From a virus: DNA of 64,000 nucleotides. Within the stretch, counting starts at the first letter, position 1. Every line of letters starts with the position of its first letter. A program made the position numbers and the translations under genes. The notes under the pieces were generated by a model. It saw nothing but the letters and a program-made list of their open reading frames with translations, did no database searches and was not told the origin of the DNA. Of this stretch, positions 57,517 to 63,163 are shown one piece after another. The stretch lies in IMG/VR virus record IMGVR_UViG_3300017991_000049, positions 1 to 64,000 of that record, one strand, 5' to 3'.

Positions 57517-59520
57517 TTATACAGCAACTCGTCTGCCTTTCGAAACTCCTCCTGGCTTCCATCCGGGCATGCCTGTATGCAGTTCATTCAGCCCTCTGCG
57601 GCCCACGCTCGACGTGTTCACGTGTGACTTACGGTGGTTCCACGCCGCGGTGCGGTAACCTTGCTGCCACAGCTGCAGTCCGACCGTGTAATCGCCTCCG
57701 TTGTGCCCGATATCGGGGTCTGGGATCATAGCTTCGCGCATAGCGGCTGTTTCGAGCGCCCAGAAGCCACCTGCAGCGAAGAAAACGTGCTGCGCATTGG
57801 GCGCTTCGGTCTTCTGCTTCGTCTGGAGCTGCCGGCCACGCCACCACGGGCGCTTCTTGGCCCATGCCAATTGCGCTGGATTCATGGTCCAGAAGCGCAA
57901 ATCGCCGACCATGCGCGCCTTTTTCACGTATTCGTTGATGATTTTGGACGCCAGATGCGGATACCAGTCCGCATCGCGGTTCGCGATCGAGTCATCGTCG
58001 AACCAGACGATCCATTTCGTGTCGATCGGGTTGTTTTCATCCCAGAACAGCTGGCGCATGGCCGGATATTTCTTCCGGTTGTCGTCGTTCAGGATCAGCG
58101 TGTGCAGTTGACCCTCGTCGCGGAGGTCTTCGAGCCACTTTCGCGTCGACATGCACACCTGATTCGTTGCAATACGGATGTCGCGGCGCGCTGGAGACGT
58201 CGTTTTGAGGATACTGCCCAGGCAAGCGCGGTGCATATCCGGATAATCGCCGTACATCAGGATGCAAATGGTCATTTTGCCGCCAATTATCACGTGATCG
58301 AGCACATTATCGACCGCGCGCTTCCCTCTGCCCTTTTTCGCCTTCCGTTCGCCCTGAAAAGCGTGCAAGAGCGCCGGCACATCGGCTTTCGGCGGGATTG
58401 TGACCGTCTTGGCGGCCTTTTTGCTGATGATTTGGTCCGCTGGCGCGAACAAATCGACCGAATTGGGCACCAAGACGCGCTTCGGGGGCGCTTCTGCCTT
58501 CGGAAGCACCAATTCCTTCGGTTTTCCGATCGGCGGCAGCGTGCCATCGTCGTAATAGCTCATGACAGCCTCCAAAACGTGATCGACAGTGACCATTTTC
58601 AAGCATTCTGGGATCTTTTGGCCGTAGCCATCGTCGACAGGGCGCTTGCAGTATGATCTATGCTTGTCCTTCTGCGTATGCAGGATCTTGTTTTTCCAGC
58701 AGCCGCGGTCCTTACAGCAGTCCAACAGGCCCTGCGTGTGCAAATATCGATGCGGAACCTTCACTGATTGCGAATACGGCCCGAAATTCTCCACGCCAGC
58801 CACGTTGACGTATGCTTCCCACCACCAATGCTCTCGTCCGCCGGCCAGAACCACGCAAGGCTTATCGAAAGCGGCCGCCATGTGCATGAAACAGGTGACC
58901 GGGCACACGATTCCCTCTGCATGGTAGACCAGCCACAGCACGTCGCGAAGGTTCGTCTTACCGACGAGGTCCATGGCGCCGTCGACAGGCGGGTTGACGT
59001 TGCCCTTATGGTTAGCGCCACAACGGACCATATGCAGGTTTTGCGCGCGCATTGCGTCAGCAAGCTGCTGCCAGCGCTGCGCGGACCACGCTTTCGTCGT
59101 GAAGTCCGACTTGTTGCCCGGTACGAGCAGCCAATAGCGCCCAGACAGCGGCGGATTCTTGTAATGCCACTCATCGAGGTGCAGATCGCCCTTCGGATGC
59201 AGGCACGGCACCGGCTGTCCGCACCGTTTCTGGAAGTCTCGGTGGAACGCCGTGACGAAATGCAGCTTCTTCCTGTTCGCCTCGGAGATGTACTTGCCGT
59301 AGTTCAGATGAACCTGCTGCATATCACGCGGTACGTGGCCATGGTTGCCCGCGATATGCGGATTGTGGTTCCACAGCGTCTTACAATGTGTCGCCACGTG
59401 TATCTCGTACTTGCCGGGGTAGGCCAGCGAGATATCGCGCACGAGACCGGTCAGGCAAGTGATGTCGCCGGGCGCGCAGCCGTGGGTGATGACGATAGGT
59501 TGGGCTGATTTTGATCTCAT
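57517..59520 (-). CDS. bifunctional glycosyltransferase: N-terminal GT9 (heptosyltransferase-like) plus C-terminal GT2-like
   Basis: N-terminus IVITHGCAPGDITCLTGLVRDISLAYPGKYEIHVAT and LVGKTNLRDVLWLVYHAEGIVCPVTCFMHMAAAFDKPCVVLAGG match GT9 motifs. C-terminal ICILMYGDYP...WFDDDS (DxD). The start codon lies inside a copy of the TTGATC...GATCAA motif. Confidence 0.6.
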   Translation of the reverse strand: MRSKSAQPIVITHGCAPGDITCLTGLVRDISLAYPGKYEIHVATHCKTLWNHNPHIAGNHGHVPRDMQQVHLNYGKYISEANRKKLHFVTAFHRDFQKRCGQPVPCLHPKGDLHLDEWHYKNPPLSGRYWLLVPGNKSDFTTKAWSAQRWQQLADAMRAQNLHMVRCGANHKGNVNPPVDGAMDLVGKTNLRDVLWLVYHAEGIVCPVTCFMHMAAAFDKPCVVLAGGREHWWWEAYVNVAGVENFGPYSQSVKVPHRYLHTQGLLDCCKDRGCWKNKILHTQKDKHRSYCKRPVDDGYGQKIPECLKMVTVDHVLEAVMSYYDDGTLPPIGKPKELVLPKAEAPPKRVLVPNSVDLFAPADQIISKKAAKTVTIPPKADVPALLHAFQGERKAKKGRGKRAVDNVLDHVIIGGKMTICILMYGDYPDMHRACLGSILKTTSPARRDIRIATNQVCMSTRKWLEDLRDEGQLHTLILNDDNRKKYPAMRQLFWDENNPIDTKWIVWFDDDSIANRDADWYPHLASKIINEYVKKARMVGDLRFWTMNPAQLAWAKKRPWWRGRQLQTKQKTEAPNAQHVFFAAGGFWALETAAMREAMIPDPDIGHNGGDYTVGLQLWQQGYRTAAWNHRKSHVNTSSVGRRGLNELHTGMPGWKPGGVSKGRRVAV

Positions 59521-59526
59521 GATCAA
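59511..59526. promoter_or_regulatory. TTGATCTCATGATCAA motif, copy 5, overlapping the start codon of the GT9-GT2 gene
   Basis: Seen directly; followed by ATTTTACCA as in copy 1. Confidence 0.5.
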
Positions 59527-59529
59527 ATT

Positions 59530-62773: not shown

Positions 62774-62779
62774 CAGCCG

Positions 62780-63163
62780 CTACTCCTTGCGGACTTTCAG
62801 AAATTCCTTTAGCTGCCCGACGGACATACTTCCAACATGATACTTGTATTGCCACTTGCCGTCGACTTTCCAGAACAGAAACAGCTGAGGTATCGAGCGC
62901 GTCTTTGCCAACTTGGCAGCCTTTGCTGCTGCTTTGGGCTGCTTGTCCACGTCAAATCGGATGTAGCGAACATGATTCAGTCCACCTGCCTTGCGCACCG
63001 CGGGGATGACCTCGTTCTTCATCTCCCTGCACGGCGGACAGCCCTCAGAACCCATTACGATGAATCGCGGCTTCTCTTCCTGCGGCGGATTGGCGACAGC
63101 CATCGCGATGTTGACTGCGTACAGCAAGCCGACGATCGCCAGCAGGTTGTAGATGGTGCGCAT
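62780..63163 (-). CDS. thioredoxin-fold thiol-disulfide oxidoreductase (CPPC active site) with N-terminal signal/anchor
   Basis: 127 aa. Hydrophobic N-terminus LLAIVGLLYAVNIAMAVA. Active-site context FIVMGSEGCPPCREM. Confidence 0.7.
   Translation of the reverse strand: MRTIYNLLAIVGLLYAVNIAMAVANPPQEEKPRFIVMGSEGCPPCREMKNEVIPAVRKAGGLNHVRYIRFDVDKQPKAAAKAAKLAKTRSIPQLFLFWKVDGKWQYKYHVGSMSVGQLKEFLKVRKE

Follow-up and report, generated by a model that had tools for sequence, protein, structure and literature searches.

What do four tightly packed genes near one end of a viral genome fragment encode, and do their products act on one another? The fragment is IMG/VR virus record IMGVR_UViG_3300017991_000049, of which we analysed positions 1 to 64,000 (hereafter the window, meaning the whole 64,000-nucleotide stretch), and the genes occupy positions 57,517 to 63,163. 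An original prediction, made from the letters alone, had described them as a glycan/secretion module that encodes a fused glycosyltransferase (here GT669), a second glycosyltransferase-like protein (p359), a large cysteine-rich protein (Cys720) and a thioredoxin (Trx127). The four open reading frames (ORFs) proved to be real and co-directional on the minus strand at these positions, and the secretion part of the description was left without any support. Our analysis points to a tail-fibre maturation module at the distal end of the baseplate/fibre block of an uncultured contractile-tailed jumbo phage, a reading that we regard, taken as a whole, as reasonably probable.

The genes are transcribed in the order listed in Table 1, with Trx127 directly upstream (5') of the Cys-rich gene on the coding strand and not downstream of it as first described. 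Only 6 nucleotides (nt) separate Trx127 from Cys720, the 364-amino-acid (aa) form of the third ORF overlaps Cys720, p359 and GT669 lie 3-9 nt apart, and 14 nt separate Trx127 from the preceding gene, which runs past the window end. The first minus-strand terminator-like site after the block is a strong hairpin at 56117..56086 (-) with a 14-base-pair stem, 10 GC pairs and a T run, and since no such site precedes it the four genes are likely to be co-transcribed. Phage markers in the window are a gpA-type large terminase gene (472..2367) and 39 tRNA genes. Identical sequence was found on metagenome contigs of up to 226 kilobases (kb), and relatives occur on IMG/VR viral contigs.

The position of Cys720 among its neighbours is what first suggests a fibre. 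Two genes upstream of it, a contig that matches the window (L001) holds a 499-aa gene whose product matches PHROG_6 (1.5e-8) and, in profile comparisons, the PDB entries 9ki1_H (Mu gp47, 1e-9) and 8v3w_E (diffocin TRI-2, 6e-7); these matches place it among the baseplate wedge proteins, in the class of T4 gp6, P2 J and Mu gp47. The succession of the 499-aa wedge gene, a ~333-aa gene, the Cys-rich gene, p359 (where present) and the glycosyltransferase (GT) gene is kept in at least 7 lineages, and the 333-aa gene, which the window end cuts, is complete in L001 (8595-9596) and syntenic in 7 lineages. In phages P2 and Mu, a J-like gene is followed by the genes of one further wedge protein, the fibre and the fibre chaperone, and because the order here is the same, Cys720 falls into the fibre slot and p359 into the chaperone slot. 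Mean column identity amounts to 29% in the Cys-rich family, whereas the wedge proteins reach 37-41% and the GT, compared among six relatives, 69%; divergence as high as that of the Cys-rich family is the pattern usual for receptor-binding proteins. No homology or fold likeness to any characterised fibre or receptor-binding protein was found for Cys720. We nevertheless consider it likely that Cys720 is a virion fibre or receptor-binding protein, and the virion-surface role that had been proposed for it fits its slot after the wedge genes, its divergence and the modules that it shares with collagen-type proteins.

These modules make up much of the protein. Cys720 contains 57 cysteines (7.9%) rather than the roughly 70 first reported, which is the highest share among the 51 minus-strand ORFs (median 1.9%), and it is acidic as described (pI 4.05). 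The three LGPP-x-GRFYGE repeats that had been noticed in it are all present, with GPP..GRFYGE at aa 84/90, 310/316 and 446/452, but the second repeat is broken by an inserted domain of ~95 aa. A hidden Markov model (HMM) built from unrelated collagen-type proteins finds three modules of ~72 aa each in Cys720, here called CWC modules. The first follows the pattern C-x-W-x-W-C-x-C ... C ... C ... G-x-W ... GPPC-x2-GRFYGE-x5-C-x-C and is joined by an acidic linker to the second, in whose N-terminal half W171, W173 and C174 are invariant. With a further HMM, derived from secreted proteins and from stand-alone ones, a beta domain of ~75 aa was recovered in two copies; copy 1 is lacking in the homologues P0002, P0006, P0009 and P0012-14, and copy 2 has a similar strand pattern to copy 1 in an AlphaFold2 (AF2) model. 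Cys720 is predicted to be all-beta.

Outside this protein family, the CWC module occurs after collagen-like repeats in other phage proteins, and a Ser tract comes behind it in every case; for 77 modules, Ser makes up 0.31 of the next 25 aa vs 0.11 overall. The tip domain is mobile too and is also found as free-standing proteins of 130-165 aa, and the ~75-aa beta domain also stands in tandem in signal-peptide proteins and in a subtilase/Calx-beta protein. As a separate observation, the beta domain (motif G.Y...G.Y.GK..Y....Y.lWW....W.IS) is repeated in the large secreted bacterial proteins P0033, P0027, P0044 and P0067; its carriers include a 2445-aa subtilase/Calx-beta protein and a 5673-aa protein, and it has no Pfam family. 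Relatives of the whole protein are scarce. Cys720 had no match in Pfam, PHROG or PDB, and tblastn of Cys720, Trx127 and GT669 against 50,697 GenBank phage records gave none either. A single-sequence scan of IMG/VR with Cys720 returned nothing, whereas an alignment-based scan did find relatives, and when 1.8 billion representative proteins were searched with a profile, no more than 106 hits emerged.

What, then, are so many cysteines for? About 40 Cys columns are conserved in the family despite the 29% mean column identity, which is, from the alignment, far beyond chance. Each domain holds an even number of conserved Cys, and the four Cys-rich units (modules 1-3 and the tip) hold 10, 6, 8 and 12, respectively. 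Most likely these residues form intradomain disulfides once the protein is outside the reducing cytoplasm. They might instead bind Zn or Fe in a fibre that folds within the reducing cytoplasm, much as T4 fibres use His-metal sites, and this would agree with cytoplasmic synthesis of a fibre that has no signal peptide, with the CxC, CC and CPC motifs in Cys720 and with the conserved Cys4-type clusters in the neighbours GT669 and p359. The conserved counts of 10 and 6 in two of the modules are not multiples of four, however, and the CWC modules contain no classical CxxC knuckles. The module Cys also lie in predicted beta strands of the AF2 model, as is typical of cross-strand disulfides, and an exported oxidoreductase is encoded next door in some lineages, so metal binding seems improbable to us. 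Disulfides in phage fibres have a precedent in cyanophage Pam3, which has a contractile tail and a simple baseplate and whose fibres are held by disulfides between wedge and fibre Cys and are freed by reduction (PMC9942802). The Pam3 bonds involve a few Cys at the fibre-wedge interface, whereas Cys720 has ~40 conserved Cys in dedicated modules whose disulfides would be internal to the domains.

Given the occurrence of the beta domain in secreted bacterial proteins and the lack of homology between Cys720 and known structural proteins, one could also take Cys720 for a non-structural protein that is released or injected as an effector, with the block as glycan/secretion cargo. An injected effector was indeed named as an option at the outset, and we found no evidence in support of it. 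Cys720 sits inside a conserved baseplate block, neither a signal peptide nor a transmembrane segment was found in it, its modules are common to collagen-repeat fibre-like proteins and its divergence is typical of receptor-binding proteins. We regard the effector explanation as extremely improbable and retain the fibre assignment below.

GT669 was thought to fuse a GT9 domain to a GT2-like domain, and this is borne out. The N-terminal part matches PF01075 at 47.2 bits (cut-off 22; E = 2.4e-12; aa 73-239). The GT2 profiles stay below threshold in GT669 itself (PF13641, 22.3 vs 27 bits; PF00535, 13.6 vs 23.3 bits), and some of its homologues carry precomputed PF13641 or PF00535 matches. An AF2 model from 84 homologues (predicted local distance difference test, pLDDT, 90.1; predicted template modelling score, pTM, 0.86) has a predicted GT-B two-Rossmann fold in the N-terminal half that is superposable on WaaC/WaaF, and a predicted GT-A fold with a DxD motif in the C-terminal half. 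Invariant or nearly invariant residues are K143, T209, H213, the W-F-D-D-D motif (506-510), C268, C274, C291 and C306, and D19, K143, T209, H213 and D508-510 are conserved positions of catalytic type. The invariant K143 aligns with WaaC Lys192, and D19 in an N-terminal APGD motif is conserved in at least 90% of sequences, its equivalence to WaaC Asp13 being by pattern only; the position of WaaC Asp261 aligns with a Val. Together, the confident model and the conserved residues indicate that the GT9-GT2 fusion is real and that, judging from sequence and model, the enzyme is probably active. The NCBIfam equivalogs for lipopolysaccharide (LPS) heptosyltransferases I/II/III were not reached, with TIGR02195 the best at 29.5 vs 134.6 bits. 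The GT669 family is large: it comprises 397 clusters or more, and the contigs that carry them are mostly 20-230 kb long.

Is the fibre a substrate of this enzyme? In 41 of 48 IMG/VR loci, a Cys-rich, collagen-like or Ser-tract protein is encoded within 4.5 kb upstream of the GT. At the level of single ORFs, all three classes are enriched upstream over background (Cys-rich, 29.5% vs 8.3%; collagen-like, 8.7% vs 0.8%; Ser-tract, 12.1% vs 5.3%), and in distant relatives the gene directly upstream of the GT encodes a collagen-like protein. Locus L016 (6221..8719 and 8734..9993) encodes first a protein of 832 aa that contains 51 Cys as well as long tracts of Ser, then a 419-aa (GPQ)n collagen-like protein with GPCCDG motifs, then the GT. 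From the L016 genes it also appears, as an observation in its own right, that Cys-rich fibres are general in this phage clade.

Gene fusions give a more direct link. P0024, a complete 742-aa ORF found in loci L014 and L015 (both 629..2857), fuses three CWC modules to a GT9 domain without GT2; its GT9 part has 50% identity to GT669 aa 9-330, and an HD_4 protein is encoded after it. In P0012, the C-terminal 80 aa of p359, its Cys-cluster domain, are fused to the C-terminus of the fibre (1e-11). The case for joint action of the three proteins is made best by these two fusions; conserved synteny alone would not make it. Other GT homologues of ~740 aa were considered as further CWC-GT fusions and rejected, as they are only GT9-GT2 proteins with a longer linker. 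From all this, glycosylation of the fibre by GT669 is a tentative assignment, possible but some way from being the expected outcome. DNA as the acceptor was likewise considered and is unlikely, given that the gene sits in a structural block and that the CWC-GT9 fusion exists.

The third gene, p359, had been called a GT-like protein, a label that we cannot uphold. Searches of Pfam, NCBIfam, PHROGs, PDB sequences and PDB profiles gave no match to p359 or its 364-aa form, and neither did hhalign against the GT family, so that it is not detectably a GT; one member of its family has a sub-threshold match to DUF6171. Its likelier start is the ATG at 60609, as called in the matching contigs. The protein consists of a conserved N-terminal domain of unknown fold and a C-terminal Cys-cluster domain (...ATEHCPxWxW), and the gene is present in 5 of the 7 syntenic lineages, directly after the fibre gene. 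No homology to the fibre chaperones P2 G, Mu U, lambda Tfa or T4 gp38/gp57 was found with Pfam, PHROGs, NCBIfam and PDB. Judged by its position, p359 is a candidate partner of the fibre, in the place where an assembly factor or accessory protein is usually encoded.

For Trx127, a signal anchor, a CPPC site and a thioredoxin fold had been proposed, and its sequence agrees with all three. C42-P-P-C45 aligns with the WCGPC of thioredoxins and I91-P92 with the I-P of their cis-Pro loop, and the hydrophobic N-terminus (aa 1-26) is signal-peptide-like, with a value of 2.05 in the Kyte-Doolittle 19-residue window at aa 7-25. Trx127 matches the PDB thioredoxin 2yn1_A over aa 29-123 (7.7e-4) and the PHROG_22 'thioredoxin domain' (3.3e-6). 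Its Pfam scores are sub-threshold (Grx, 21.6 vs 22.9; Thioredoxin_2, 21.2 vs 27; Thioredoxin, 19.3 vs 23.5), and its homologue P0111 carries PF00085 and PF13098. A DsbA-type helical insert, as found in proteins of ~190 aa, was not seen in the mature Trx127 of ~100 aa, which aligns continuously with thioredoxins of 105-110 aa.

The gene is rare. Among 5.8 billion proteins there is one close homologue, which has 89% identity and occupies the same slot in a sister phage, and a third homologue with 36% identity, a WCGPC site and a hydrophobic N-terminus occupies this slot in IMGVR_UViG_3300010413_000009. Between the wedge and fibre genes the active site reads CPPC in the window, CEPC in L018 and CGPC in L020 (36% identity), and the C-x-P-C motif, the cis-Pro loop and the hydrophobic N-terminus are kept in all three lineages (36-89% identity). 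When every ORF in 110 loci was scanned with an HMM, the family turned up in those three lineages only. They are related, stand in one sub-clade together with Trx-less relatives and are three among ~60 lineages with comparable fibre/GT modules, and six other lineages whose Cys-rich fibres are homologous have no Trx. Among the matches listed, a metagenome scan for Trx homologues gave only remote membrane-anchored thioredoxins in unrelated contexts. This distribution suggests that Trx was acquired once, in a small sub-clade, and then retained between the wedge and fibre genes, and that Cys-rich fibres do not generally require it. We propose that Trx127 is an exported accessory thiol-disulfide oxidoreductase and not a core part of the module.

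Trx127 had further been cast as a dedicated helper in disulfide folding. In that role it would be an oxidative-folding catalyst that forms or shuffles the ~20+ disulfides of the fibre, perhaps at lysis, once holins have let cytoplasm and periplasm mix, or in the lysate. In its favour, the gene stands between the wedge and fibre genes, 6 nt from Cys720 and with its own strong ribosome-binding site, its homologues keep exactly this position in three lineages although identity has fallen to 36%, and the fibre has ~40 conserved Cys. Plasmid F offers a mobile-element analogue in TrbB; this periplasmic isomerase has a Trx fold, and Cys-rich Tra proteins have been proposed as its clients. However, the six Trx-less lineages have the same fibre Cys pattern, no further copy turned up in the 110 loci, and the drift from CPPC to CEPC and CGPC does not point to one tuned redox potential. 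Trx127 has a signal-peptide-like N-terminus and the fibre has none, nor a transmembrane segment, which would place the two in different compartments until lysis. Moreover, Pam3 forms its fibre disulfides, and the study of that phage mentions no oxidoreductase of phage origin for them (PMC9942802). Support for the proposed helper is limited; a dedicated catalyst is doubtful, and we would say the same of any action of Trx127 on the fibre, the link between the two being one of gene position.

The narrow distribution of Trx127 and its separate compartment are among several points that weigh against a fibre-maturation module. The others concern the evidence for the fibre and for its glycosylation. 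The AF2 model of Cys720 is of moderate confidence (pLDDT 64.7). The 333-aa neighbour has no family match of its own, and neither it nor a 141-aa neighbour gave a baseplate match in PHROG and PDB profile searches. Synteny in the clade is region-wide, so the adjacency of GT and fibre may merely reflect conserved gene order. Ser tracts lie upstream of the GT in only 15 of the 48 loci, and the stronger conservation of the GT than of the fibre could also be explained by a conserved acceptor other than the fibre, for example the LPS core.

The last two points lead to a different role for GT669. Possibly together with p359, it could modify the LPS core or another surface glycan of the host and so mask the receptor, either against superinfection or against the loss of progeny on debris. 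It would then be encoded beside the receptor-binding gene, which is also the place of some exclusion genes. Its N-terminal domain has its closest relatives, in sequence and in structure, in the LPS heptosyltransferases WaaC and WaaF, a mean column identity of 69% is as expected for a conserved acceptor, and the scarcity of Ser-tract proteins upstream of the GT agrees with an acceptor other than the fibre. In phage T5, moreover, a gene for a receptor-blocking lipoprotein adjoins the receptor-binding gene. Yet LPS modification does not easily account for the CWC-GT9 fusion in P0024, the equivalent of WaaC Asp261 is not conserved in GT669, where a Val takes its place, and no membrane-association segment was found in GT669. 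It thus seems rather unlikely that GT669 serves to modify host glycans.

The analysis shows the gene order, the domain architecture, the two GT folds, the thioredoxin homology and the distribution across lineages, whereas the virion location of Cys720, its disulfides, its glycosylation and any effect of Trx127 on it are inferred. With the block read as a fibre-maturation module, its products could cooperate as follows. The short N-terminus of Cys720 would dock on the wedge, the three CWC modules with flexible Ser-rich linkers between them and the two beta domains would follow, and an exchangeable Cys-rich tip would contact the host. Intradomain disulfides would render the fibre rigid and protease-resistant. 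GT669 and p359, encoded right after the fibre gene, would be fibre-maturation factors, and in this scheme GT669 would most likely build a short O-glycan on the fibre, for instance on the Ser-rich linkers. For Trx127, the targets may be virions at lysis or proteins of the envelope. In its fullest form, this would be an environmental jumbo-phage clade with its own maturation pathway for a mucin-like fibre of extracellular type, in which GT9-GT2 and p359 O-glycosylate the linkers that separate disulfide-knotted CWC modules and, in one sub-clade, an exported Trx catalyses or proof-reads the disulfides at lysis; that all of these steps hold together is quite improbable.

The closest organisational parallels are the J-I-H-G genes of P2 and gp47-gp48-gp49-gp50 of Mu, where, as in the window, a J/gp47-type wedge gene, a further gene in wedge position, a long divergent gene for a beta-rich protein and a small accessory gene are co-directional and tightly packed. 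Cys720 has no sequence or fold likeness to P2 H or Mu S and p359 is unrelated to known chaperones. Unlike in P2 and Mu, a two-domain GT always follows the fibre gene here and an exported thioredoxin sometimes precedes it.

In its logic, O-glycosylation of the fibre by GT669 would be analogous to the heptosylation of repetitive adhesins by TibC and Aah, of which TibC has iron-finger Cys at C339/C342/C358/C370 (PMC4358343). A search for TibC among PDB sequences gave no match to GT669 at phmmer E-values up to 1 or profile E-values up to 10. Compared with the bacterial autotransporter heptosyltransferases (BAHT), the GT669 model has no N-terminal beta-barrel and opens with E7-13, H17-33 and E38-44, and its GT9 domain is fused to a GT-A domain. 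The four invariant Cys of GT669 follow the C-lobe in the arrangement CC-x4-C-x16-C-x14-C, without CxxC and with a spacing unlike that of TibC. WaaC and WaaF, the best relatives of the N-terminal domain, share with it the Lys192 equivalent K143 and the N-terminal G-D motif; GT669 differs in scoring far below the NCBIfam cut-offs, in not conserving the Asp261 equivalent, in being phage-encoded and GT-A-fused and in always standing beside fibre genes. Mycobacteriophages provide a known case in which glycosylation of virion proteins is encoded by the virus, with capsid and tail-tube glycans (summarised in PMC12619734). As opposed to those glycans and to the GT-A enzymes of chloroviruses and mimivirus, the present system has GT9 and GT2 in one chain, its presumed target is the fibre linkers, and it is known from genes alone.

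Trx127 resembles the TlpA/ResA/CcmG-type proteins in its small predicted thioredoxin fold, its C-x-P-C motif, its cis-Pro loop and its putative export signal, and, as with TrbB, its gene lies on a mobile element next to genes for Cys-rich structural proteins. In contrast to both, its detectable relatives are just two phage homologues and its presumed client has no export signal.

Table 1. Positions in the window of the four-gene block, its domains and the adjoining gene, in order of transcription.
Feature	Position	Strand	Residues or length	Remarks
333-aa gene, 3' part	63178..64000	(-)		Cut by window end; P2 gpI / Mu gp48 slot by position only
Trx127	62780..63163	(-)	127 aa	First transcribed of the four ORFs
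Cys720	60611..62773	(-)	720 aa	Second transcribed
Cys720 N-terminus			aa 1-30	One conserved Cys
CWC module 1	62462..62683	(-)	aa 31-104	HMM E 5.8e-15; 10 conserved Cys
CWC module 2, N-terminal half	62210..62275	(-)	aa 167-188	VWTWCPC; HMM aa 170-186
Beta domain copy 1	61931..62209	(-)	aa 189-281	Inserted in CWC module 2; HMM aa 202-279, 5e-15
CWC module 2, C-terminal half	61787..61930	(-)	aa 282-329	HMM aa 283-329; whole split module 2.5e-8
Ser-rich linker, predicted disordered	61592..61786	(-)	aa 330-394	pLDDT <50; candidate O-glycosylation tract
CWC module 3, then short poly-Ser tract	61373..61591	(-)	aa 395-467	HMM aa 396-467, 4.2e-17; 8 conserved Cys
Beta domain copy 2	61079..61315	(-)	aa 487-565	HMM aa 494-541, 7e-8
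C-terminal Cys-rich tip	60614..61078	(-)	aa 566-720	HMM (from stand-alone proteins) aa 580-711, 5.4e-17; 12 conserved Cys
p359	59530..60624, likely 59530..60609	(-)		Third transcribed; listed as 364-aa ORF from TTG at 60624
GT669	57517..59526	(-)	669 aa	Fourth transcribed; alternative start 59520 gives the 667-aa form
GT669 N-terminal GT-B domain	58531..59520	(-)	aa 1-330 of 667-aa form	GT9, heptosyltransferase-like; includes the four invariant Cys
GT669 C-terminal GT-A domain	57541..58293	(-)	aa ~410-660	GT2-like; W-F-D-D-D

Several other genes in and around the window deserve mention. Two minus-strand ORFs at 57042..57473 (143 aa) and 56702..57034 (110 aa) are conserved after the GT in all close relatives and have no family match, and counterparts of the 110-aa ORF follow the GT even in the distant L016 and L017. 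Downstream of the GT block, a 568-aa AAA ATPase (47565..49271 (-); PF00004, 3e-24) is syntenic clade-wide. In the baseplate block, ~3.5 kb upstream and beyond the window (L001 5303..6043), all relatives have a 246-aa protein with sigma-70 region 3 (PF04539, 1e-5) and a helix-turn-helix.

At 54288..56030 (-) the window encodes a Ro60/TROVE and vWA protein (PF05731, 1e-39; PF25045, 3e-52) that is conserved in L009 and L012. Rfam gave no Y RNA near it in 52900-57600; the one match there, to the BjrC68 sRNA at 56080..56154, is sub-threshold and coincides with the terminator hairpin. This Ro60-encoding genome also has an 845-aa ORF resembling the major vault protein at 19617..22154 (-), with the shoulder domain PF11978 (7e-23) and the vault repeat PF17795 (4e-9). 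A 623-aa protein at 31476..33347 (-) contains a trypsin-like peptidase domain (PF13365, 2e-17). The 39 tRNA genes lie within 3162..34479, all on the minus strand and interspersed with ORFs, and cover every amino acid of the 20 but Tyr.

Tail fibres set host range, yet hardly any have been annotated in uncultured giant phages. Fibre modules that include accessory genes are known; what is new here are the domain families, the constant GT9-GT2 neighbour, the fusions and the exported Trx. The CWC module, the ~75-aa beta domain and the Cys-rich tip are undescribed candidate building blocks of fibres, none of them in Pfam, PHROGs or PDB, and in hundreds of phage lineages the putative fibre genes have the gene of a bifunctional glycosyltransferase as their fixed neighbour. 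Should neither fibre glycosylation nor enzyme-assisted disulfides hold, the module would still be useful for annotation, with its wedge, fibre and accessory proteins. If either is true, post-translational armouring of the virion would extend to environmental phages of didermic hosts, and the module would also supply sequence markers for fibre genes in metagenomes. And if the full pathway were true, Trx127 would be without precedent as a catalyst of oxidative folding that a phage encodes for a virion protein, and glycosylation of virions would extend beyond the actinobacteriophages.

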